From contig CAWFGE010000023.1 in assembly GCA_963815195.1 (NCBI GenBank), positions 224,001 to 288,000 of the forward strand: DNA of 64,000 nucleotides, in the 5' to 3' direction. Positions 9,847 through 23,286 of this stretch are shown one piece after another; the first letter of the stretch is position 1; every line of letters begins with the position of its first letter. This DNA comes from an uncultured Planctomycetaceae bacterium. GTDB lineage: Bacteria; Planctomycetota; Planctomycetia; Planctomycetales; Planctomycetaceae. The translations under genes and the position numbers were made by a program. The notes beneath the pieces were generated by a model, which saw only the letters and a program-made list of their open reading frames with translations, was not told where the DNA came from and ran no database searches.

Positions 9847-10060
9847 CTCAAGAAAATCATCAAACGCGCCGGACTCAAAGTTTGGCCGAAGATTTGGCAG
9901 AACCTCAGGTCAACCCGGCAAACGGAATTCGAGAGAAGACTTCCCGGCCCACGTTGTCTGTGCTTGGATGGGGAATCGCGAACCCGTCGCCAAACCGCAT
10001 TACCTCCAAGTCACCGACCAGCACTTTGAAAAAGCTGTGTTTAACGCGCTGCAAAACCCG
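9847..10060 (+). pseudogene. C-terminal remnant of tyrosine recombinase/integrase
   Basis: [24 protein letters not shown] then (frameshift) [12 protein letters not shown]...[13 protein letters not shown]; ends near a tRNA 3' end. Confidence 0.8.
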
Positions 10061-10172
10061 GTGCAGACATTGCACGCTCGGCAGAACTCGCCAAAGGTGA
10101 ACAACGCGAATTCGCCAAGTGCCTCAAGGCGAGCGATGCCGATATTTGGCGAACATCGACAGTGTGCAAAAG

Positions 10173-10246
10173 TAGGGCCGGAGGGACTCGAACCCCCAAC
10201 CAACAAATTATGAGTTTGCTGCTCTAACCGATTGAGCTACGGCCCC
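10173..10246 (-). tRNA. tRNA with CAT anticodon (Ile2 or elongator Met; not initiator); CCA not encoded
   Basis: GGGGCCG-TAGCTCAATCGGTTAGAGC-A-GCAAA CTCATAA TTTGT-...GGGGG TTCGAGT CCCTC-CGGCCCT-A folds into a cloverleaf. Confidence 0.95.
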
Positions 10247-10260
10247 AATCTTTTTGGTAA

Positions 10261-10473: not shown

Positions 10474-11782
10474 TTATCGCGACGCCGCTTGCGACAGGCC
10501 GGCAAGTTGTTCGAGCAGGCTCTCGCCAAGTTCTGGCTCGCTCATCGCGATATACGCCGCATAGCCGGCGAGGGTTTGCGGCGTTTCGCCGTCGCGGAGC
10601 GGTTTGCCCTTTGTCAGATTATGGATCGCCGCGCGGATTTGCCGTTTGAGCGTTCGGGAAACGCGGGGCGGGCGGTCGCCGTTGGTGACGAGGCCCGTCA
10701 CCTGCTGCCGGCTGCCTTGGCGGTTGATGCGGGTTTTTTCGGGATGAATCTGAAACCCCTCATCGGCCACCGTCCGCTTGACGAGGCCCATCAGCCGGCC
10801 CAAACTCGGCGGCCCCTTATGCTCCGCCGGCAGGCTGAACGTCAAATCGTCCGCATACCGCGTGTACCGCCAACCGTGCTTTTTCGCGAGCCCCGACAGC
10901 CTGCGGTCCATCCGCAAGCAGAGCGTGTTCGTCAAGCCGGGGCTCGTCGGCGCGCCTTGCGGCAAACACCTCGGGCCCAAGGCGATAAAGTAAGTCTTGC
11001 CGTTGTGCTCGACGATCTCGCGGGGCGACTCGGTGCACAGGAGCGCGAGCAGCGTGGCGATCTGCTCGCGGTAGCCGGCCTTGCGGAACACGCCCTTCAC
11101 CCGCGGCAGCGTGACCGTGGGGAAGAAATTCTGGATGTCCATCTTCAAGAGGATCTGCGAATCGGTGTGCATCTTCGCGTTGGACAAAATCGACCGGCCC
11201 GGCAGGAAACCGTGGGCCGCCCCGTGGACGATCAGCTTTTCCACGATGTTCCGCAGAATCCAGCGTTGGGCGGCTTTGAGTTTCGGCAGCGGCGCCCAGA
11301 TCGCCCGCTCGCTGCCGTCGCGCTTGGGGATCGTAAACCGCCGATAGTGGATCAAAGTCGCCGCTTCGCGGTGATAGGCCAGCCAGCGAAGTTCCGCCAC
11401 GGAAAGATCCAGACTCTCGGCGAGCTCTTTCGGCGAATCCAGCGGCGGGCAGCTCGTTCTCGGCCGCGCGTTCCTCGGCGTGCTCCAGGTCCCACTTGTC
11501 CCAATCCAGGCCATCGTTCCAGAACACGTGCTCGCCCAGATGCACGATATAGTTGGCCCGGTACGCCTGCCAGGCTTCCGCCTTCAGCTTTTTCTTCTCC
11601 GCCGCCTCGCCCTTCAGTTGTTTTTTGTATGCCGCGAGTTCGCGTTTGGACATGCGGCCGGTTTCCCGGCGTTCGACGAGAAACCCGCGTTCGCGAAGCT
11701 GCTGCTCGATGTAAGCCTGCACGCTCCCCGCCTGCTCAATCGCCCGCCAAACCGCCGCCGCGTCCGACCGCCTTGCTGCCAT
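10474..11782 (-). CDS. Retron-type reverse transcriptase, Mx162-like, ~435 aa; one frameshift near 11450
   Basis: IPKRDG, AAHGF..GRSILSNA..H, D..NFFP, LPQGAPTSP, YTRYADDLTFS, QVTGL (retron VTG); N-terminal extension (AIEQAG..QL..RG...HLG..VFW) resembles the myxobacterial Mx162 RT as recalled. Confidence 0.92.
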
Positions 11783-11983
11783 GTCGTGTGGTCCTAAAGC
11801 CTTTATGTTTTGAAAAATCGAATCCGATGAGACAAGGTGTGTCACGATACGTCAGATCACAAGTGGACGCATCATTATTTTTTAGAAATCTGTTTCGGAA
11901 CATAAGCCCTATTTAACAAAATAGTTACCAAAAGTGCCAATCGTCGTCTGTCCAAAAAATCGCTCTGCAAGAAAATTTAGTCG

Positions 11984-12011
11984 TTGACATCCCTCCATAG
12001 CCGCATATAAA
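11984..12011 (+). promoter_or_regulatory. Sigma70-like promoter pointing away from the RT
   Basis: TTGACA-16 nt-TATAAA in an AT-rich intergenic region. Confidence 0.5.
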
Positions 12012-12139
12012 CGGGAAAATCACCTCAATCGGGTTTTCACTTCTTACCCGTTCCACTCAAAACGCCGTTGGATTCCGATCACTTCCCCATTTCGGAAAGG
12101 GCTGCACGATGTTGTTAAGGGATTGGCTCGATCCGCACT

Positions 12140-12228
12140 GGTGCCACTGGCAACTTGTTGCCAGTGTTTGCTTGATATTCGATCAATCACGCGTCAAAAG
12201 CACTGGCAGATAAGCCACCAGTGCCACC
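12140..12228. repeat. REP-like doublet, family C; partial copy at 10441-10465
   Basis: GTGCCACTGGCAACTTGTTGCCAGTG ... CACTGGCAGATAAGCCACCAGTGCCACC; GCCACTGGCAACTTGTTG also lies just past the RT stop. Confidence 0.7.
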
Positions 12229-12285
12229 ATTGCCACCCCGGCGCCGGCTTTACTTGCCTATTGAGATGTGTTTGTGCCAGTTTGA

Positions 12286-12690
12286 TCAATTGGCTGGCCG
12301 GATAATCTTGTGGTTTGCATTCAATTTCGGAACGCGTTGGCAAGAGGCCAATCCTTGAAACTGAATCGATTTGGACTCATGCCATTCCTTCAGCCAATCT
12401 TTGAGATCGTGCTCCCAAACCATTGGAAACCGTAACGCCATCGACCACAACGCGTTGTAATCAACTGTTCGTTTTGTGATGATTTCATTCCAAACGGCTT
12501 GACGGGCCTTATCGAGGTATCGTTCTCTCAACTGCACGTAATGAGACGAGGGTTCACCTTCCTCATCGAAGAACAGTTCACCCTGTCCCGTTTTTTTAAC
12601 CCGACGATTCTGTTGTGATTTCGCCCTGGCCGATTCCATATCTTTCATGGCCTTTTTCTCGGCCTTTTTGAATTCCTCAATCCCTTTCAA
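12286..12690 (-). pseudogene. 5'-truncated gene; resembles the C-terminus of three-Cys-motif partner (TcmP-like) proteins
   Basis: Starts abruptly at KGIEEFKKAEKKAM..RA..QQ.RR; lower GC; family assignment from memory only. Confidence 0.5.
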
Positions 12691-13645
12691 ATGCCCTCAA
12701 CTCCGACACGCTTTATCTTCTCGGCACCAACGTTGATAATGGATTTTATGAAGCGATGGTCAAGGTGGAAAACTCCTTGGGGGCCTCTGTGGAATCCTGC
12801 TTCCAAATCGATGTCGGCAACACGCCGCCGACGATTACGGTCGATGGAACGAGCGAGTCGATGGCCGGGGACGAGTATTCCATCGACATCTCCACGTCCG
12901 ACCTCGGGCCGGACACCGTCAGCTCCTTGAGCATCGACTGGGGCGATGGGACGGTTGACACCGCGGCAGCGGCAGGCGGGACTTTCACCCATGCTTATGA
13001 CACCGCCGATGGATACACCGTAACTGTCACCGCAACGGACGAGGACGGCAGCTATGACGCCGATCCGCATTACGTCATCGTTCACGGCACGGATCCCGTA
13101 ATCTTCTATGCCTTCGCAACGCTCATTGATTCGTCGACCGCCGAGGTTTCTGTTGAGGTGGACGATTATACCCAGACCTCCTTGGCACTCGATTGGGATC
13201 TCGACGCCGACGGGGTCTTTGACGACGCCACCGGCGACGCCGTGACAATCACCGCTGGCCAAGGGGTGTTTCCGGGAACCAACGGCGAGCCATTCCAGGC
13301 GAAATTAAGGGCCACGAACGGACTTGGCGGCGCGGCAAGTCAAGTTTTTGCATTCCAGCAGGGGGGCCAATTAAAGCCTGAACTTCAAGACATATTGACT
13401 TCTCTCACCAAAGTTGAGAATCGGTTCCAAATAACAGGAGCCAACCCGAAGGGTATTCCAACAACACTTAAATTTCCACCGAATTCAGATACGGTAGTAG
13501 TTACGGTAGTAGTTACGAATGCTCAATTGAAGTCATTGTTTAACAACATGATGGTGCTAGTAACTATGCACAACGGAGCATTTCTTGATGCCGGTTATTT
13601 AACTCAACAACCACCTACTCCAGTTGCTTTGATGGAGTATTTCAT

Positions 13646-15424
13646 CCCGGATTATTCACCAAAAAAGCTGAAAAAAGAAGGAACCATCGCGTGACCCCCT
13701 GCGTTTAAGTGTTATATGCAATCCCAACACCATACGGAGGAATCACGCGATGGGTGAAGTTCAGCCTAACATTTTCGAGCCCGATTTCAATCGTTCCATC
13801 AAGGTCAAGGCCGTCGATGGGCGGCTCACGTCACACTCCGGTGCCGTTCTGCTGCGGGACTTCGATCATCGGCTCGGACTCACCGAATCGCTCGCGGATC
13901 AACTGATCGATCCTCGCCAGCAAGACCGCGTCCGCTATCAAGGCGTCGAACTGCTGCGGGAAAGAATTTATGCCATGGCTCTGGGAGAGTCCGATCAGGA
14001 TGATCTCGACCGGCTCGCCCATGATCCCGCCATGAAGATGGCCGCCTGGGACCGGCCCGGCGAAGAAGTGCTCAACCAACGCCTGGCCAGCCAACCCACT
14101 CAGTCCCGGCTCATCGATTGGCTGGCCGACTGCAAGACGAATCTCGAGGCCGTGCGGAGCGCCTTGTTCGACTGGATCCATCGGCACATCAAAAGCACCG
14201 GCGACAGCGACCGCCGCGTCCGCTACGCCACCATCGACATCGACAGTTTCCCGATGCAGGTTTATGGCCAGCAGCCGGGGGCCCGCTATAACGGTTACTA
14301 TAAAGAGACGGTCTATCATCCGCTGGTCGCGAGTTTCTCGGTGGGCGGCGACTACGACGGCACGCGGGAAGGCCAGCGGCTGGGCAACGGCTTCATTCAT
14401 GCCATCCTGCGGCAAGGCAGCGTGCATACGGCCAATGGCATCCGGCGGTTTATTCGCAACGTGGTCGGCAAGGCCCGGCAACTGGCGTGGAGCTTCGACC
14501 TCCGGATCGATGCGGGTTTCATCGCCGGCCCGGTGTTGGATGAGTTGACCGACGAAAACATCCGTTTTTGCGGGAGAATCAAGAAGAACAACGTGCTGGA
14601 AGAGATGGCCGCGCCCTATCTGACACGTCCCGTAGGCCGGCCGCCCAAAGGGGGATATGAGGACGTGATCGAACTCGGAAAGTACCAAGCCGAGGGCTGG
14701 CGTCATCCGCAGCGGGTGATTCTGGTCATCGTCGACAAGCCGGAGGCGAAGACGGGCCAACTGGCTCTGTTTCCGCGTTACTTCTTCCTGATCACAAACT
14801 GGACCGAGGAGCAACGCTCGGCGGATGAGGTGTTGTCGCACTACCGCAAGCGCGGCACGTTCGAGGACCGGCTGGGCGAATTCAACGCGGTGATTGGCTG
14901 CCGTCTTTCGTCATCGGTGTTTGCGGAGAACGAAGTGACGTTGCTGTTGGGCCTGCTGGCGTTCAACCTGGCGTCGATGCTGCGGATCGAGTTCGAGGAC
15001 GAGTTGGGCGGTTGCTGGGACTTGCATCGTTTCCAGCAGTCGGTGCTGCGGACAGGAGCGCGGGTCGTGAAGCACTCCCGCCGCCTCGTGATTTACATTG
15101 AGGAAAGCGTGAGCGCGTTTTGGGCCGCGATGTCTTCCCGCATCCGATCGCTGCGTCTGGCCAACCTCTGGCCACGTCCGCGCGGAGCTCGCCCGCGGCC
15201 CTACACACCTCTCCCACGTCACGCCCATGAGCAACTGGTTCTTCGGGACTGAGCAGTTCGCCATCGTGGCATCCGCCTTTCTGTTTCTTTCCTTCACTCA
15301 CCCAACGATCGCCAGGCCCCAGGGGGGAAAGGGGGCGGTCCGCCCATCCTCCGCTCCCCAACCACCCGGTGCACTTTCCGCCACGGAAATACTCACCACG
15401 CACGGACCTGATGAATAATCCGGG
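13646..15424 (+). mobile_element. IS1380-family insertion sequence (1779 bp)
   Basis: Terminal IRs CCCGGATTATTCA / TGAATAATCCGGG; 5-bp TSD TTCAT at 13641-13645 and 15425-15429. Confidence 0.93.
13750..15252 (+). CDS. IS1380-family DDE transposase
   Basis: LTSHSGAVLL, LASQPTQSR, IDIDS, YNGYY..YHPL, RIDAGF, YRKRGTFE. Confidence 0.93.
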   Translation: MGEVQPNIFEPDFNRSIKVKAVDGRLTSHSGAVLLRDFDHRLGLTESLADQLIDPRQQDRVRYQGVELLRERIYAMALGESDQDDLDRLAHDPAMKMAAWDRPGEEVLNQRLASQPTQSRLIDWLADCKTNLEAVRSALFDWIHRHIKSTGDSDRRVRYATIDIDSFPMQVYGQQPGARYNGYYKETVYHPLVASFSVGGDYDGTREGQRLGNGFIHAILRQGSVHTANGIRRFIRNVVGKARQLAWSFDLRIDAGFIAGPVLDELTDENIRFCGRIKKNNVLEEMAAPYLTRPVGRPPKGGYEDVIELGKYQAEGWRHPQRVILVIVDKPEAKTGQLALFPRYFFLITNWTEEQRSADEVLSHYRKRGTFEDRLGEFNAVIGCRLSSSVFAENEVTLLLGLLAFNLASMLRIEFEDELGGCWDLHRFQQSVLRTGARVVKHSRRLVIYIEESVSAFWAAMSSRIRSLRLANLWPRPRGARPRPYTPLPRHAHEQLVLRD

Positions 15425-15752
15425 TTCATTCAATATCAGACAGAATGGGTAACAGAAGTTAAGAACGGTCAGAGACAAGACGTGGGGAGGACACCGTGGG
15501 CACCCGACGGCCCCGACCTTGCTGCGAACTCGACCCATCCTTTTGGATATATAAATCAGGAACTTATCCTCGGTGGTGCGTTAATGGATGACACTCCAGG
15601 TACGAGCTTAGTGTTAAAACGCGGCATCCATTTCAAAGGTGTCACCGGGCAGTGAAAACCGGCCACTTGTGGGCAGTTCAAAACCGGCCATTTGAGAGGA
15701 AAGGGATTCGTCATTCTGTTCTCCTGGGAGTTTTCTCAGAGGAGAACAAGCG

Positions 15753-17365
15753 ATGTCGAATCAGCTCCCGATGGACACGGTTCAAGCCATTCATGCCTTA
15801 CACGCCCAAGACTGGTCTCAGCGCAAGATTGCCCGCGAATTGGGCATTCACCGTTCGACGGTGGCGGCCCATCTCGCTTCAAAACCGGCCAAAGTGCCCA
15901 CCGGGTCCGAGGATTCAAAACCGGCCAAAGTGCCCACCGGGTCCGAGGCCCAACTGCCCACCGGGTCGGAGGGCCAACCGCCCGTCGAATTCGAGGATCT
16001 TCCTGAGGCCCTTGGAGAAGATTCTGAGAAGGAAGAGGCGGAACCTTCGCGGAGTCGCTGCGAGCCTTGGCGGGATGTGATTTTGGAGAAACTCGGCCAG
16101 GGTCTTTCCGCGCAGCGGATTTTCCAAGACCTGTCGAATGACCATGATTATGTGCATGGCTACGACAGCGTGAAACGCTTCGTGCGGCATTTGCGATCTT
16201 CGAAAGAGTTGCCGTTTCGGCGATTGGAATGCCAACCCGGCGCGGAAGCTCAAGTGGACTTTGGCCAAGCAGCGGCCGTCGTGGATGAGAACGGCCGTCG
16301 CCGCCGACCTCACGTGTTGCGCGTGGTGCTGAGCCACAGCCGCAAGGGTTACACGGAAGCGATCGAGAAACAGACCACCGATGGCTTCATCCGTTGTTTG
16401 GAGAGCGCGTTCTGGCATTTTGGGGGCGTGCCCAAGACGCTAATCATCGATAACTTGCGAGCCGCGGTGAGCAAGGCCGATTGGTTCGACCCGGAACTCA
16501 ATCCCAAGATTCAATCGTTCGCCGAGCATTACGGCACGGTGTTTTTGCCCACGCGGGTTCGCACGCCGAGGCACAAGGGCAAGGTGGAACGCGGCGTGGA
16601 CTACGCCCAAGAAAACGCACTCAAAGGGCGGACGTTTCAAAGCCTGCGCGAACAGAACGAACATCTTTGGAATTGGGAATCCACGGTGGCCGATACGCGG
16701 ATTCATGGAACGACCAGAGAGCAAGTGGGCCAGGCGTTTCGCGAGCGAGAACAGTCGGCGCTGTTGCCGTTGCCGCTCGAACGCTTTCCGTTTTTCCATG
16801 AAGCCGAACGGAGCGTGCATCGCGATGGGCACATCTCCGTGGAGAAGGCGTATTACTCCGTGCCGCCGGAATTCTTGGAAGGAAAGTTTGGGTTCGCTGG
16901 GATGCGCGGCTGGTGCGAATCTTCAATACCAAGCTGGAACAGATCGCCTTGCATCCCCGTCAAGAACCGGGAAAGTTCAGCACGCAGAACACCCATTTGC
17001 ACGCACAAAAAATCTCGGGTGTGGAACGCGGAGCCACTTGGTGGTTGGCGAAAGTCAGCGAAATCGGCCCGGAAACCAGGGATTGGGCCGCGGCCATGCT
17101 GGGAGCACGGGGCATTGAAGGCGTGCGGGTGTTGATGGGTCTGAAGCAACTCGCCGACAAGCATTCGCGTGAGGACATCGAACGCGCGTGTTGCACGGCC
17201 CACTCGTATGGAGCCTACCGTCTTCGCACCGTTCGCAAGCTGATCGATCGCAACGCCCCCGTGCAAGGACAGTTCGAGTTTTTGGACGAACACCCGGTCA
17301 TTCGGCCGTTGGTGAGTTATTCCGAGTTTGTGCAATCCGCTTTACGAAAGGAACAGAATCGATGA
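15753..17365 (+). CDS. istA: IS21 transposase IstA (frameshift near 16880)
   Basis: N-terminal HTH (SQRKIARELGIHRSTV), PGAEAQVDFG, FGGVP, DNLR, KGKVE, YSVP. Confidence 0.92.
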
Positions 17366-18337
17366 ATGGGAACTTAATGCAGATGCTGAAGCAACTCCGC
17401 TTGAGCGGTCTGATCGAATCGTTGGAAGTCAGGCTTCAAGAGGCCGTCGGCAACGGATTGTCGCATGCCGAATTTGGAGTTGGTGTTGAGCGATGAGTTG
17501 GCGATCCGTCGTCAACGGGCGATCGATCGGCGATTGAAGCAAGCCCAGTTCCGCGAGATGAAAACTCTCGATCAACTCGATTTTTCCTTCAACCCCACTC
17601 TCCCCAAACGCCGAATTATGGACCTGGCCACGGGACAGTTTATTCGCGAAGCGGCCGACATTTTACTGCTCGGTCCGCCGGGCACGGGAAAAAGCCACTG
17701 CTGCCAGGCAGTGGGTCGCAGTGCAATCAAAGCCGGCTTCACGGTGCTCTACCGTTCGATCTTCGATGTGGTCCGCGACTTCCTGCACGAGGCCGCGTTC
17801 GAGGGTGATGACAAAACGCTGATGCGCTACCTCAAGCCCGACCTGTTGATCATTGACGACATGGGCATGAAGCAACTCCCGAAGAGAAGCGGGGAATGCT
17901 TGTTCGAGATCATCCTTCGCCGGCACGAAGTCCGCAGCACGATGATGACCTCGAATCGACCGTTACAAGATTGGGGCAAGCTCATCGGCGATGTGCCCGC
18001 CGCGACCGCGATCTTGGATCGCTTCTTGGAGCATGCCGAGATCATCCAGATCACCGGCCAAAGCTACCGCCTTCGCAACCGAACGAAAGAGAAACTGGAC
18101 CAAGAGGACAAGGCTCAACAGGACGCCAAAACCGGCCAAGACGAGAAGCCCAGACGGGACGCCAAAACCGGCCAAAAGGAGACGGGGAATCAAAGCCCCA
18201 AAACCGGCCAAAGTGCCCACCGGGTCGAGCCCGAAGAATCCTCTGAGAAAAACTGCCCAGAAAATAAGCAAGCCAAACGGCAAAGGATCAGAAAAACCCA
18301 CCTGAGACTTGAGCCACCGAGGTCAAGCATCCGATAG
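17362..18337 (+). CDS. istB: IS21 helper ATPase IstB (frameshift near 17470)
   Basis: LKQLRLSG, Walker A GPPGTGKS, Walker B LLIIDD, TSNRP..DWG, AILDR, GQSYR. Confidence 0.92.
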
Positions 18338-18768
18338 CAAAACTGCCACCGACAGAAAGATTGTGCGACCAAGTCGCGTTACTAATCATTCACACCCCTG
18401 TCGGTTTTGAAGTGCCCACCCCTGGCCGGTTTTGAAGTGCCCGGTGACACAAAGGGGACCGAGTTGCCAACGGCATTAAGATCACTCTCATCAAAACCCC
18501 AAAACAAATCTACGATGGCAGCGCGTCTTACCAGGCTTTTGTTGCCAATCAACGAGAAGCTGGCCAAGACTTTCAAACATACATCGCACAAGCACGACGG
18601 CCGGGGTTCGGGGCGGCCTTTAGTATTCATCCTTATAGATACGTTGAATGGGGTTTCAAGCTGACTGGGACAGCGAACGGCTGGGACGTTACACTTACCG
18701 TTACACTTACCCAACCATCTGAACATGTGGGCAACGATCAGAATGTTTGGAACTTGTGAGGTAGTTCA

Positions 18769-19503
18769 ATGGTAGGTCTTTCAACATTAATTACTGCATT
18801 AGGTATTTGTTTTGGAACCATCTACTACACATGCCTGATTACGATGAATACAGACCGTGCGGTAACGCGGTGTGGGGGTTTAGCGATCGGTGGATCAATA
18901 TTACCGGACTGGATTTCAAGCCGTCTCGGTGCCATTAATGTTGTAAGGGAGATTCACTGTGCAAATGCCGACGCTATCCAGTTTCCGGAATCTAAAGCTA
19001 TTCTCCATGATCGTTGGATGTTTGGTGGGTCCGCCAGGATTTCCACGGAATTAGTCCAAGTCCTAGCGAAAAACGACCATCTGGATTACGTGCATCTGGA
19101 TTTCACGGAATTCAATGACTCACACCTGCAAATGCTGAGTGCTTCCGACAACATCACGCTGCTGGGCATCTGCGGGACGAAGTGCACGGATGACGGGATG
19201 AAGCATTTGCGGAAATATCGGCATTTGGAGAGCGTCTATCTCTGCGAATTGCCGATACGCGATGCCGGGGCGGCGGAGATTGCGAAGTGCAAGACGCTGA
19301 AATACGTCAACATCTACGAAACCTCGATCGGCCCCAAGGGGTTGGAGAAGCTGTTCGAGCTCCCCAAGTTGGAAACCCTCGTGGTCAGCGACAACGCCCC
19401 CTTCAAGGAGGAACTGTCCTGGTTGAAAAAGAAGCGGCCGAAAGTCAAGGTGGTGGAATTTAAAACCCAATATGACGCCGAAGGCAACAAGCGAGTGGAT
19501 TAG
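18769..19503 (+). CDS. Leucine-rich-repeat protein with N-terminal hydrophobic anchor (copy 1; candidate immunity protein)
   Basis: LxxLxLxxTxxTDxGxxxL-type repeats; starts 9 nt after the exoprotein stop with a GAGGT SD. Confidence 0.82.
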   Translation: MVGLSTLITALGICFGTIYYTCLITMNTDRAVTRCGGLAIGGSILPDWISSRLGAINVVREIHCANADAIQFPESKAILHDRWMFGGSARISTELVQVLAKNDHLDYVHLDFTEFNDSHLQMLSASDNITLLGICGTKCTDDGMKHLRKYRHLESVYLCELPIRDAGAAEIAKCKTLKYVNIYETSIGPKGLEKLFELPKLETLVVSDNAPFKEELSWLKKKRPKVKVVEFKTQYDAEGNKRVD

Positions 19504-19735
19504 GACTCGGACAGGCTTCATCGATCGGAGTGAGCCTGCCGCGAAGCTCACCCCGCGGTGGCGTCCAGGTAGCCTTTGGCGGCGAGGTTTTCCAGGCGGC
19601 TCAAGTACTCGGTTCTGGCTTCATCCGTCGAGTTGAAGCGGAGGTTTTGGGAACGCAACTCGTCCCCGGCCCGGCCCCAGCGGAGGCGGAGCTTGTGGCG
19701 GTCGAGGGTGATTTGAAAGACATCTTCGCCCGCGG
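19180..19735 (+). repeat. Direct repeat copy 1; near-identical to 20684-21239 (offset 1504 bp)
   Basis: Manual alignment shows about nine substitutions; covers LRR 3' half, intergenic hairpin and SWIM-gene 3' end. Confidence 0.95.
19548..19735 (-). pseudogene. Duplicated 3' fragment (WGR-like tail) of the SWIM gene
   Basis: AGEDVFQITLDRHKLRLRWGRAG...YLDATAG*; matches the end of 21052-22929 except for one residue. Confidence 0.92.
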
Positions 19736-20154
19736 CGGCCCAGAACCGAGCCGCCTGGGATGCCATCCTAAGAAATACGGCGGCCAGACGATTGGTGATG
19801 GGCTGGTAACTATGAGCGATGCGCTTGGGCAATATAAAACGCTTACAAAAGGTGTCGATTATTCGGAAACACGAGTGCCTGGAACAAACATAGTGCAATT
19901 CATGCTGATTAAGACTCCTCAGCAAATTTTTGCTGCCGACGATACCCACCAGTCTTACGCTAGTAATCAATTCGAGGTAAAACAGGACTTCCAGACCTAT
20001 TTGGTGAAACATATTGCCCCAGCGACGTTCATTCCGATCAAATACGTCGAATGGAGCTTTAAAGCCAGCGACAACGACGACTGGCTATAACATTACGATT
20101 CTTACGCAGCCTATGCAGCATAACGGCGCGGATAACAACGTTTGGAATCTATAA
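19736..20154 (+). pseudogene. Orphan diverged C-terminal cassette of the exoprotein (no start codon; frameshift near 20080)
   Basis: LIKTPQQIF..QDFQTY..YVEWSFK..LTQP..NVWNL* aligns with LIKTPKQIY..QDFQTY..YVEWGFK..LTQP..NVWNL* of 18456-18759. Confidence 0.88.
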
Positions 20155-20171
20155 TGCAGCGAGGTCGTGTC

Positions 20172-21007
20172 ATGACATCGAAAACATCCATTGCCACAAT
20201 CGGAATCTATTTAGGAGCGTTATTCTGTTTTACAATTCAGAATAACCAGGATATTGAGGATAAGGTTTACGAGTGCGGGGGCACCACGATTTCTGAACTT
20301 ATTATGCCCGCTCGGATCGTAAGCAGAGTTCCCGCTGCCCGTCTTTTGAACCCAATCAGGGAAATCCACTGTATAAATTCTGACGCAATCAGATTTCCGA
20401 TGCAGTCAAAGGTTGTTCTCCACGATCGTGATATAATTACGTTCCGCAAGGAAAAGAATGCGTATCTTTCCAAGGAACGACTCATAGCCTTGGAGGGGTT
20501 ATTCCACCAGCTTAATCCCTCACCCCAATGCGCAGCCCGTGTTTCCACGGAATTAATCAAAGTACTAGCGCGGAACGACCATCTGGATCATGTGCATGTG
20601 GATTTCACGGGTTCAACGACTCGCACCTGAAAACTCTGAGTGCGCTCCGATAATATCACCTGCAATTGGGCATCAGCGGGACAAAGTGCACGGATGACGG
20701 GATGAAGCATTTGCGGAAGTATCGGCATTTGGAGAGCGTCTATCTCTGCGAATTGCCGATACGCGATGCCGGGGCGGCGGAGATTGCGAAGTGCAAGACG
20801 CTGAAATACGTCAACATCTACGAAACCTCGATCGGCCCCAAGGGGTTGGAGAAGCTGTTCGAACTCCCCAAGTTGGAAACCCTCGTGGTCAGCGACAACG
20901 CCCCCTTCAAGGAGGCACTGTCCTGGTTGAAAAAGAAGCGGCCGAAAGTCAAGGTGGTGGAATTTAAAACCCAATATGACGCCGAAGGCAACAAGCGAGT
21001 GGATTAG
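20172..21007 (+). CDS. LRR protein copy 2 (frameshifted around 20610-20665)
   Basis: Paralog of 18769-19503 (REIHC.N.DAI.FP, STEL..VLA.NDHLD); diverged N-half with an insertion, near-identical C-half. Confidence 0.8.
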
Positions 21008-21239
21008 GACTCGGACAGGCTTCATCGATCGGAGTGAGCCTGCCGCGAAGCTCACCCCGCGGTGGCGTCCAGGTAGCCTTTGGCGGCGAGGGTTTCCAGG
21101 CGGCTCAAGTACTCGGTTCTGGCTTCATCCGTCGAGTTGAAGCGGAGGTTTTGGGAGCGGAGTTCGTCCCCGGCCCGGCCCCAGCGGAGGCGGAGTTTGT
21201 GGCGGTCGAGGGTGATTTGAAAGACATCTTCGCCCGCGG
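20684..21239 (+). repeat. Direct repeat copy 2
   Basis: See 19180-19735. Confidence 0.95.
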
Positions 21240-22929
21240 GATGCCGGCGGCTGAAGGTGCGGGTTTCGACGGTGATCGCCGCCCGCGACCGGCCGCCAGC
21301 GGCGCGTTCTTTTTCGCGGACCGCATAAGCCAGGCGGAGGGCGATCAGATGCGGGCAGGGGCCGTGCTGCAGGCCTTGCTTCCTAAAGAAGGTGCACGTG
21401 CACTCGGCTTTGCTCACGCCGCCGTCGTCGTTGACCAACAACTGCGGGCGGTACTCGCGCTTGTCCTCGGCCACGTTGACCTTGCCCGTCAGTTCCAAGC
21501 CGGTGCCGTAGATGCGGTTTTCGGTGGCGATGCTCACGGCGTTTTTGCGAGCGAGCAAATCGTGGGCGAGCCGTTCCCGCTGGTTGCGGTATTCCAGCCG
21601 ATCCAGATGCAGGGGGACATCGGTCAATGGCCGCAGGCGATAGACGTTCCGGGCCAGGTCGAACATCAACTGCCCCTGCTGGCAGCCCAATTGCAAGGCT
21701 TCGTGAAGCGCCTCGCCGGTGAGCTTGGTCGCTTTGGACAAGCCGGCTTCCTCATCGAACCAGACCTGGGAAAGGTGCTTGATGACCGCTTTGAGTTCCT
21801 TGGACTCCTGCGTTTTTCGCGGCAGAAGCAAATCGAAGCTCGCGGCCTCTGACCAGTTCGCGGATGTGAAGCCCGTCATGCCGAGCGTGATCGTCAGGTC
21901 CTCCGACCGGAGCACCCAAAAGCTCGGCAGGCCGCTGCCCAGGATGTGCACCTCGACCCCATCCACAAAAGGCAGCAGCCGCTGCAGAAGCATCAGCCGC
22001 CGCCGGCCCCAGATGCGAACGACTTTCGCCTGCCGGCCTTGATAGATCCCCGCCGACGCGGGCAGCACCTTTTCCCAAGGCTCCAACACGACGACGGGCT
22101 TTTCGCCGGGGATGAGTTCCACCCGCAGGCCGCGGCGTTTGCCTTTTTCGTCCGCGTGCATCCGCAAATGGCGGAGCACGTTGTACAGATCGAGCGGCGA
22201 CAGCGAGAACCGCTCCCGCGGCAAGGTCGCGGCGGACTGCACCTGCAGGAACCCGCGAATCCACGAGTCCGGCACGCGGATGTTTTTTTCGAGGACTTCG
22301 GGCTTCGATTCCGCGGGGGCTTCGGCCGCGTCCTGGGCGATCGTCAGGCTGGTCTCGCGGTAGCTCCGCATTTGCAACAGGCCGTCGAACAGCGTTTGGC
22401 TGAAGTCGATGTTCGTGGTGCCGAAGGCCGGCTCGTTTTTCTGTTCGGTGACCGATTCGAAAGCGTCGCGGGCGATGTTCAAGGAGGCATAGCTGCCTTC
22501 ATCCTTGCTGAAGACTTCCACCAGCACGGCGTCGGGATGCACGGTGATGACCGGATCGAGAATCAGCCACGCCAGCGGATCGTTGCGGGACAGCCATTCG
22601 AAGTAGGCCTGCTGGGCTTCCCACGCGGCGAGGTTCGAGGATTGCTGCTTCATCCGCCGATAGGCCTGGTACGCGGTGCGGTCTTTGGGGACGTAGCGGT
22701 AATCGCTGCCGACGATGGCGTAGATCGCCGCGAGCGCTTCGCGAAACTTGAGCGGATCGCGAATCCGCCCGTCAAAGCGCACCGGATCGCGATGCCGGTT
22801 CCCGAACAACCGGAGTTGCGATTTTCCCTCCGCCGAGACGACCCGGCTCTCGCCCTCGTACGCGAGCGAAACATCCGTCTGATCCGGCGCGGCCGGCTCA
22901 TCCGCTTCGGTGGATTTTTCATCGGTCAT
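21052..22929 (-). CDS. SWIM zinc-finger protein with C-terminal WGR-like domain (retron type XIII-associated family)
   Basis: CTC-x-C-x-H (ECTCTFFRKQGLQHGPCPHL), RLRWGRAG tail, LDPVITVHPD, EVFSKDE, SWIRGFLQVQSA, WGRRRL. Confidence 0.85.
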   Translation of the reverse strand: MTDEKSTEADEPAAPDQTDVSLAYEGESRVVSAEGKSQLRLFGNRHRDPVRFDGRIRDPLKFREALAAIYAIVGSDYRYVPKDRTAYQAYRRMKQQSSNLAAWEAQQAYFEWLSRNDPLAWLILDPVITVHPDAVLVEVFSKDEGSYASLNIARDAFESVTEQKNEPAFGTTNIDFSQTLFDGLLQMRSYRETSLTIAQDAAEAPAESKPEVLEKNIRVPDSWIRGFLQVQSAATLPRERFSLSPLDLYNVLRHLRMHADEKGKRRGLRVELIPGEKPVVVLEPWEKVLPASAGIYQGRQAKVVRIWGRRRLMLLQRLLPFVDGVEVHILGSGLPSFWVLRSEDLTITLGMTGFTSANWSEAASFDLLLPRKTQESKELKAVIKHLSQVWFDEEAGLSKATKLTGEALHEALQLGCQQGQLMFDLARNVYRLRPLTDVPLHLDRLEYRNQRERLAHDLLARKNAVSIATENRIYGTGLELTGKVNVAEDKREYRPQLLVNDDGGVSKAECTCTFFRKQGLQHGPCPHLIALRLAYAVREKERAAGGRSRAAITVETRTFSRRHPAGEDVFQITLDRHKLRLRWGRAGDELRSQNLRFNSTDEARTEYLSRLETLAAKGYLDATAG

Positions 22930-23028
22930 GCGTCGGTTCCTCATTCGTGTGCTGTTCAAATCGCTCCCAGTCTGAGCAATCCCAGAAGCCGGGTCAAGCG
23001 GTTGCCGTGATCGATTTCGAGGCGATGA

Positions 23029-23126
23029 CCGCTTACTTCGTGCGCGGCTCTCTTTGCAAAAAAGATGACCGCTTACTTCGTGCGCGGCTCTCTTCGCAAA
23101 AAAGAGCCGCGCACGAAGTAAGCGGT
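23029..23126. repeat. REP-like family B: two direct copies and one inverted copy
   Basis: CCGCTTACTTCGTGCGCGGCTCT x2, then AGAGCCGCGCACGAAGTAAGCGG. Confidence 0.85.
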
Positions 23127-23286
23127 CCTTTGCCGGAAAAGGTCGGGGCACCCATCGTGATGACGGTTCCCGATGGACTGGCTCTCTGGAGTTCGCCGTT
23201 GTACGCTGTCGGAATTGTTTGCACCGATTAAGGTCTCAGTCAAAGGCTCAACACCAAAGCTGCCTCACCCCTTGGAAAGATTGCCC

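Follow-up and report, generated by a model that had tools for sequence, protein, structure and literature searches.

Variable C-terminal domains that sit on a repeat-bearing exoprotein, are coupled to a co-varying downstream gene and are followed by a second, start-less copy of the pair are familiar from the Rhs and CdiA-CT/CdiI systems, and the locus described here raises the question of whether a similar layout also marks a toxin-immunity system in a planctomycete. The locus lies in a window of 64,000 nucleotides (contig CAWFGE010000023.1 of assembly GCA_963815195.1, positions 224,001 to 288,000, forward strand) from an uncultured bacterium of the family Planctomycetaceae, and all coordinates below are those of this whole stretch. 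It consists of two units, each formed by the C-terminal domain (CT) of an exoprotein with PKD domains and by a gene for a membrane-anchored leucine-rich repeat (LRR) protein, and it separates the two genes of a putative type XIII retron. We regard it, with about even confidence, as a broken and probably imported two-gene cassette array in two diverged copies inside the retron operon, in which the CT of the PKD exoprotein and the coupled anchored LRR partner probably once made up a cognate pair. The array is dead: the exoprotein gene has lost its 5' end, the first CT (CT1) is interrupted by insertion sequences (IS), the second (CT2) is frameshifted and the second LRR gene (LRR2) carries three indels and a stop codon, so that LRR1 alone is intact.

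The interrupted exoprotein gene and its anchored partner

The exoprotein gene survives on the forward strand in three pieces, and rejoining 12756-13645, 15430-15639 and 18456-18759 by coordinates with a script gave an open frame of 467 amino acids plus a stop codon. An earlier, sequence-only reading of the window had described a 468-codon frame interrupted by an IS1380 and an IS21 element with one target site duplication each, encoding PKD-like domains and then a low-GC C-terminal domain that it could not assign to a known family, with an anchored LRR gene 9 nt downstream. The rebuilt frame, in which all of the listed motifs were found, and the borders, duplications, family models and compositions given below agree with this description, except that 12756, the first position of the frame as described, is not a true start. 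The frame continues open upstream to 12672, next to a stop at 12669, and its first codons fall in the second half of an Ig-like repeat, which makes ATG 12756 an internal codon of a gene cut at its 5' end. Neither a signal peptide nor a start context was seen in the sequence at this end, and the missing N-terminal part was not found in the same genome with the PKD part as query.

Piece 1 (12672-13645) carries the Ig-like repeat and a PKD domain (Pfam PKD_4 at E 4.3e-09 and PKD at E 1.6e-05, each above its cutoff) and passes at about 13329 into the orphan C-terminal region, where the GC content at third codon positions (GC3) drops from 0.69 in the PKD part to 0.37 (13329-13643). The orphan domain occupies the final ~270 codons of the gene. 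Piece 2 (15430-15639; 70 codons with the motifs WAPDGP, HP and MDDTPG) has no family match, and piece 3 (18456-18759; QDFQTY, YVEWGF, NVWNL and the stop) is the end of CT1 and is 42-44% identical to CT2. That the joined frame stays open over 70 + 101 codons after two exact excisions, at about 48% GC, and that a second copy is conserved as a protein, cannot reasonably be put down to chance. The proteins most closely related to the PKD part are giant surface proteins of the PKD/cadherin/RTX type, some labelled Planctomycetota or Pirellulales by their sources; they are at most 39% identical to it and none of them covers the CT. A side observation in a MAFFT alignment is that the CT1 stretch from STHPFGY (15527-15637) aligns with the later SIHPYRY stretch (18620-18720), which may be an internal duplication of a strand hairpin or mere chance.

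Both insertions that split the frame have a family transposase, inverted repeats and a target site duplication, of 5 bp and 6 bp respectively. The IS1380-family element (13646-15424, forward strand; transposase 13750-15252) ends in the inverted repeats CCCGGATTATTCA, as read from the sequence, and is flanked by TTCAT at 13641-13645 and 15425-15429. Its transposase matched NF033539 (272.5 bits, cutoff 180), and Pfam DDE_Tnp_1_4 as well. Elsewhere in the genome the element recurs in 11 full-length copies that are 97-99% identical, in a nearly full copy (98%) and in a further full copy (91%), and the insertion looks recent. The IS21 element (15640-18449, forward strand) lies between copies of CAAAGG at 15634-15639 and 18450-18455; its istA is broken across two frames (15753-17135 and 16913-17365) and is followed by istB (17465-18337), and the remaining copies in the genome are just 81-89% identical. 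IstA matched NF033546 (264 bits, cutoff 160) and IstB matched NF038214 (210.6 bits, cutoff 200), with Pfam rve and IstB_IS21 also found. Within IS21, 36-nt tandem repeats occur in the 5' coding part of istA (15878-15972) and in the 3' coding part of istB (18100-18207), and they look like the terminal repeats of the element. No contig from four sequencing runs bridges a joint free of an IS; the contigs chiefly cover the two IS elements, and one of the runs yielded short identical pieces at low depth.

LRR1 (18769-19503, forward strand) begins 9 nt past the stop codon of the joined frame. Its product has an N-terminal transmembrane (TM) helix at amino acids 2-34, a Cys-containing orphan N-domain at about 35-92 and an LRR domain at 93-235. 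Pfam LRR matches were below their cutoffs. An AlphaFold2 model built from 13 sequences had a pLDDT (predicted local distance difference test) score of 86-97 over amino acids 93-235 and below 50 for 29-90, and Foldseek matched the model to the LRR of NLRP1 (E 2e-07) and to ribonuclease inhibitor (3e-06), with E values between 2e-07 and 1e-05. As modelled, the domain is an LRR solenoid of alternating strand-helix repeats that resembles ribonuclease inhibitor.

The LRR domain belongs to a widespread family, which at E up to 1e-10 was matched in 225 of 301 genomes including the own one (224 of the 300 related genomes), the matches covering amino acids ~85-238 of LRR1 only. The 19 best loci show the small members standing alone, each with a signal peptide of its own. 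LRR1 has in common with these small secreted proteins of the order the LRR domain (28-32% identity over amino acids 93-235), a GG motif and the repeat pattern; they pass from a signal peptide directly into the repeats, whereas LRR1 and LRR2 have a TM helix and an insert and stand behind a CT. Because of the TM helix here and the signal peptides in the family members, the LRR domain should be extracytoplasmic. According to the family alignment, the variable part of LRR1 is the TM helix together with a ~55-amino-acid Cys-containing insert missing from the other members, and the N-domain (amino acids 1-95) had no match among proteins of 134-427 amino acids. No credible CT homologue was found in the 224 related genomes that carry the LRR family.

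Two diverged units and the joint between them

The second unit starts behind a fragment of a neighbouring gene. At 19548-19735 (reverse strand), between unit 1 and unit 2, lies a copy of the last 62 codons of the retron SWIM gene, encoding its WGR-like tail and 97% identical to SWIM amino acids 638-699. It is followed by CT2 (19737-20154, forward strand), a start-less copy of the last ~140 CT codons, whose frame ends at 20090; past a frameshift near 20087 the conserved end of the domain goes on in the +1 frame to a TAA at 20152-20154 that overlaps the ATG of LRR2. LRR2 (20154-21007, forward strand) has a diverged N-half with a ~30-amino-acid insertion and a C-half close to that of LRR1, and compared with LRR1 it has, over some 50 nt (~20611-20661), lost one nucleotide at one point, gained one and two nucleotides at two others and acquired an in-frame stop. 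The start-less second CT and the second LRR gene with its diverged N-half and near-identical C-half, both pointed out in the sequence-only reading, are real as copies but not as working genes, both being pseudogenes and the former frameshifted. CT2 is 42-44% identical to CT1 in amino acids; for the region of piece 2, which MAFFT misplaced against CT2, pairwise alignment gives just 27%. CT and LRR gene are closely coupled in either unit, by the 9-nt gap in unit 1 and by a TAATG stop/start overlap in unit 2.

The right-hand parts of the two units form a nucleotide repeat in which 19040-19735 recurs at 20542-21239 with 95% identity. The repeat takes in the LRR C-half, the 45 nt that follow as a spacer and the last 188 nt of the convergent SWIM gene, and the 3' end of the resident SWIM gene is the source or twin of the copy at 19548-19735. 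At 19735|19736 the homology breaks off abruptly, precisely where CT2 starts, and this start at 19736 behind the SWIM-tail copy has no border motif in common with the main gene. The same junction of SWIM tail and CT2 is present in P0001, a protein of a 91%-identical relative, together with a different CT2 frameshift; on this comparison of sequences, the junction is older than the split from that strain. When P0001 is set against 19530-20087 of the window, the CT2 part differs at 7 of ~67 residues and the antisense SWIM-tail copy at 1 of 69. Either the CT2 remnant changes faster or conversion keeps the SWIM-tail copy uniform.

The units also differ in composition from their surroundings, and the low GC of the C-terminal domain extends into the partner gene. 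GC3 is 0.37-0.48 in the three CT1 pieces, 0.52 in CT2 and 0.41-0.50 in the LRR N-halves, against 0.74-0.82 in flanking and native sequence (0.74-0.78 in the LRR C-halves, 0.77-0.82 in the SWIM, RT and BNR genes). On the right this variable module ends within the LRR genes, at about 19040 and 20540. Downstream of a CT that is 44% identical between the two alleles the partner varies too, with 39-44% identity in the N-halves and 92-98% in the C-halves. Synonymous sites are saturated between CT1 and CT2; the LRR N-halves have a ratio of nonsynonymous to synonymous substitution rates (dN/dS) of 0.34 at a dS of 1.7, and the C-halves a dS of 0.04. These values suggest that both alleles were functional for a long time and that their right flanks separated recently. 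A diverged module of low GC3, made up of the CT and the N-terminal part of the partner and set between native-like flanks, fits what would be expected of exchangeable cognate cassettes.

The history of the array may be read from its joint. Since the two units are joined through the 188-nt copy of the SWIM 3' end, the array would have arisen through recombination at this very site. In bacterial DNA uptake, homology-facilitated illegitimate recombination combines one homologous anchor with one illegitimate joint. The simplest route would be an event of this kind with a divergent allele of another strain, in which the left end of the incoming allele was anchored by homology and the right end was joined illegitimately inside the resident CT. 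Such recombination would give the arrangement seen, with the resident copy displaced and deprived of its 5' end and the common flanks duplicated, and is deduced here from one junction. A single event could account for the start-less CT2, for the 95-98% identity of the LRR C-halves and SWIM tails and for the 39-44% identity of the CT and the N-terminal part of the partner. Alternatively, a tandem duplication of ~1504 bp may have occurred in place and been followed by allele replacement or gene conversion. Either route would need a second, very different allele of CT and partner in the population or in a donor. As the CT and the partner's TM helix and N-domain vary together, forming a module of foreign composition with conserved sequence on either side, they were probably a cognate pair, which would have met outside the cytoplasm and relied on allele-specific recognition. 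This pair could have been a toxin with its immunity protein or a ligand with its anchor or receptor, and the locus no longer works as either.

Several points weigh against so favourable a view of the pair. Binding between CT and LRR protein is presumed, and with only two alleles available their co-variation could just mark where recombination tracts ended. No donor strain and no allele free of the IS elements turned up. In the absence of homologues and of a usable model (mean pLDDT 44.6), any function assigned to the CT is a guess. Duplication in place followed by allele replacement or gene conversion fits the history equally well, the gene, with its 5' end missing, may never have been expressed here, and with the family of the LRR C-half standing alone in 224 of 300 related genomes the pairing could be a local accident.

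A rival explanation, which we consider somewhat unlikely, does without any functional pairing. It holds that some ~3.2 kb of DNA, foreign or rearranged, were caught at random between the SWIM and RT genes, bringing the tail of an adhesin-type PKD surface protein with a structural or binding end domain and an unrelated secreted LRR gene, that a local duplication and patchy gene conversion produced the two units and that the low GC reflects no more than the origin of the donor. The exoprotein fragment, cut in mid-domain and abutting an unrelated small open reading frame (ORF), would agree with this, as would the LRR family, ubiquitous and stand-alone, and the setting in an IS-rich, strain-specific stretch that is missing from a genome of the same genus (G256). 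The nearest relatives of the PKD part are, as said, giant surface proteins that leave the CT uncovered, and the CT end weakly matches a GYRFVGW-type strand motif that is repeated in one giant surface protein, a hint that the domain may be a structural one of the beta type. Random capture, however, would not be expected to keep the stop/start coupling in both units, nor to match the CT and the N-terminal part of the partner in divergence (39-44%) and in odd composition, with a sharp switch to native-like sequence inside the LRR gene; a dN/dS of 0.34 for the partner N-halves also speaks of long selection on both alleles. We retain the decayed array of once cognate cassettes as the favoured reading.

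The question of a toxin

Searches for anything that the CT resembles found little. The genome itself holds the two CT copies only. Across 300 other genomes of the order, the CT end gave two marginal matches (E ~0.01), both with internal stops, and the N-terminal part of the CT gave none. A profile search of 1.84 billion representative proteins recovered only P0001 and one weak match to a repeated motif (P0002; E 1.4e-04 against the CT end, seven stretches of a 28-amino-acid motif), which is a weak lead only. Pattern scans with the CT produced 150 matches in genome contigs, 595 in metagenome contigs and 61 in viral contigs, none of which was confirmed, and a word-based search of longer proteins produced 172 candidates, none of which scored. 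No family or toxin match was found in Pfam (even at E 10), NCBIfam, PADLOC, PHROGs or the sequences of the PDB. The conserved Q-x-E of both CTs was considered as an ADP-ribosyltransferase motif and dropped, since no R or S-T-S-like motif lies at a suitable distance from it. Structure prediction added little: the AlphaFold2 model of CT2 aligned with the CT1 end (two sequences) was the unusable one with the mean pLDDT of 44.6, and a feature search of a protein atlas with the CT1 end gave a best score of 0.80 (recognition 1412), below the useful range. A complex prediction of LRR1 amino acids 26-244 with the CT1 end returned 'no answer' at a score of 0.00, which is evidence neither way.

The proposal put forward in the sequence-only reading was that of a polymorphic toxin locus, and its observations on the layout stood, namely the variable CT, the tightly coupled downstream gene and the start-less second pair. 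In this proposal the exoprotein, now or until recently, delivered on its PKD stalk a novel CT toxin acting outside the cytoplasm, the anchored LRR protein conferred immunity and unit 2 was a displaced orphan pair. The foreign composition of the variable module between conserved flanks would suit such a system. So would the persistence of LRR1, the putative immunity gene, as the one intact gene. The statement that LRR proteins are among the proposed immunity families also holds, Imm-LRR being such a class in Zhang et al. 2012 (PMC3482391). The LRR1 model, moreover, is like ribonuclease inhibitor, which inhibits enzymes by binding, although this is a matter of resemblance only.

A good deal stands against a toxin. 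Pfam, NCBIfam, PADLOC and PDB sequences show no trafficking domain, pre-toxin motif or toxin family, and a catalytic motif cannot be recognised in the CT. Known toxin domains are spread over many phyla according to Zhang et al. 2012 (PMC3482391), whereas for the CT no homologue came up among 1.84 billion representatives other than that of the near-identical strain. PKD is not named there as a stalk repeat (no mentions in the first 300,000 of the 357,715 characters of PMC3482391), and in that portion of the article Imm-LRR is placed beside toxins of type V secretion systems and not in planctomycetes. The border of the orphan unit is an illegitimate junction with the tail of the neighbouring SWIM gene, and the relatives of the LRR domain are stand-alone genes. 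Four features that define polymorphic toxin systems were not found, namely an N-terminal secretion or trafficking domain such as a signal peptide, TPS, PAAR or LXG, a stalk of the RHS, FilH, ALF or tail-fibre kind (it is PKD/Ig-like here), a toxin family and a common orphan border; one was found, a directly downstream gene that varies with the CT, in two alleles. In view of these four we do not count the locus among the polymorphic toxin systems, although it may still have worked like one. That it is such a system, or was until recently, seems unlikely to us, and toxin-immunity is a possible but unsupported function of the pair, for which nothing speaks positively apart from the layout.

The comparison with known systems shows where the resemblance ends. 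With the Rhs and CdiA-CT/CdiI systems the locus shares the variable CT on a repeat exoprotein, the coupled and co-varying gene, the start-less second pair and the deviant composition. Unlike the Rhs and contact-dependent inhibition (CDI) systems, it has neither a trafficking domain nor a stalk of the RHS or FilH kind, and neither a pre-toxin motif nor a known toxin fold; it also differs in that its partner is half-variable with a conserved LRR, its orphan border is the tail of a neighbour and everything but LRR1 is inactivated. LRR1 is like Imm-LRR and the LRR of ribonuclease inhibitor in forming an alpha/beta horseshoe of the inhibitor kind beside a candidate secreted domain; it is unlike them in its membrane anchor and extra orphan N-domain, and in that the LRR is the conserved and not the variable portion.

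A more far-reaching version of the favoured reading is that the two units are alleles of an unseen polymorphic system of exoprotein and partner, in which a CT of new fold on a PKD stalk would be recognised allele-specifically by the orphan N-domain of the anchored LRR protein, for toxin and immunity or for kin recognition, with cassettes exchanged among strains through one-sided homologous recombination and the present copy being a dead one lodged in the retron operon. This we judge distinctly unlikely. If the pair was truly cognate, it would add an unfamiliar fold and a half-variable LRR partner to the known exoprotein/partner systems, in a phylum for which such systems are poorly charted. 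As it stands, the locus is mainly a well-documented case of the decay of a strain-specific island, in which captured DNA splits a defence operon, the putative type XIII retron, and was then remodelled by a recombination event and by the insertion of two IS elements. It also serves as a warning that local recombination can assemble a layout like that of toxin-immunity loci, and that layout by itself does not justify calling an orphan domain a toxin.

The retron operon around the array

A type XIII retron consists of a reverse transcriptase (RT) and a linked SWIM protein, as described in Mestre et al. 2020 (PMC7736814), and genes matching both are present on the reverse strand of the window. The SWIM zinc-finger protein (21052-23151; 699 amino acids with the WGR-like C-terminal tail) matched PADLOC SWIM_XIII at E 2.8e-193 and Pfam SWIM and WGR. 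The RT gene (10474-11781) matched PADLOC RT_XIII in two frames (E 2.8e-146 and 1.2e-12) as well as NCBIfam retron RT models; it is split by a frameshift near 11440-11480 and its likely start is ATG 11781. In strand and order the pair agrees with retrons of the Mx162/Mx65 type, where the two genes are adjacent; here they lie 9.27 kb apart and the RT is frameshifted. No retron non-coding RNA, which in a type XIII retron would be contiguous, was detected by Rfam at E up to 0.1, where tRNA alone reaches threshold. The idea that the LRR genes might represent the HEAT/ARM accessory known for type XIII retrons was considered and rejected, for they lie on the opposite strand and have another fold.

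The stretch between the two genes (11782-21051) contains the whole array and a small ORF at 12286-12690. In the closest orthologous locus (G082; SWIM 66% identical) the RT, in one frame, starts ~40 nt past the SWIM stop, and among 11 SWIM loci of relatives nine have an RT behind SWIM on the same strand within the 1.5-kb flank, the two in which it was not seen being L054 and L061. This adjacency in relatives argues that the 9.27 kb at 11782-21051 are an insertion into the retron operon. Without both IS elements (4.6 kb) and the ~1.5-kb repeat unit, the insert would originally have measured ~3.2 kb and held the small ORF, the tail of the exoprotein gene and one LRR gene. The small ORF, on the reverse strand, encodes 134 amino acids, diverges from the cut end of the exoprotein frame and abuts it. 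It has no match in Pfam, NCBIfam or PADLOC; the atlas feature search led to clusters of GMT-like winged helix-turn-helix proteins (0.94, 206 shared features), a lead only, and the product is possibly a small winged-helix protein.

A few further observations concern the retron genes and their margins. The genome has a second SWIM_XIII-like gene (G000, C12:1097050-1098393), 35% identical to the first, within 6 kb of which no RT was found with the RT of the window as query. Directly beyond the RT lies a tRNA-Met gene (10172-10246, reverse strand), a position typical of an island border, and this gene with its flank (9853-10251) has copies of 75-77% identity at two places in the G256 genome. Just upstream of the RT start, a ~300-nt stretch within 11836-12170 has a copy of 72% identity in contig C26 of G256, with no RT nearby, and an exact repeat of 27-33 nt that follows it at 12136-12169 has at least 10 copies in G256. 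At the other margin, Rfam gave miRNA-like matches at 23062-23130 that were discarded, as they score far below the gathering thresholds and reflect a palindromic repeat. This repeat (23024-23130) consists of two 40-nt direct repeats that form a near-perfect palindrome with arms of 28-29 nt, and dozens of matches of 25-110 nt in G256 point to a family of intergenic repeats resembling repetitive extragenic palindromes.

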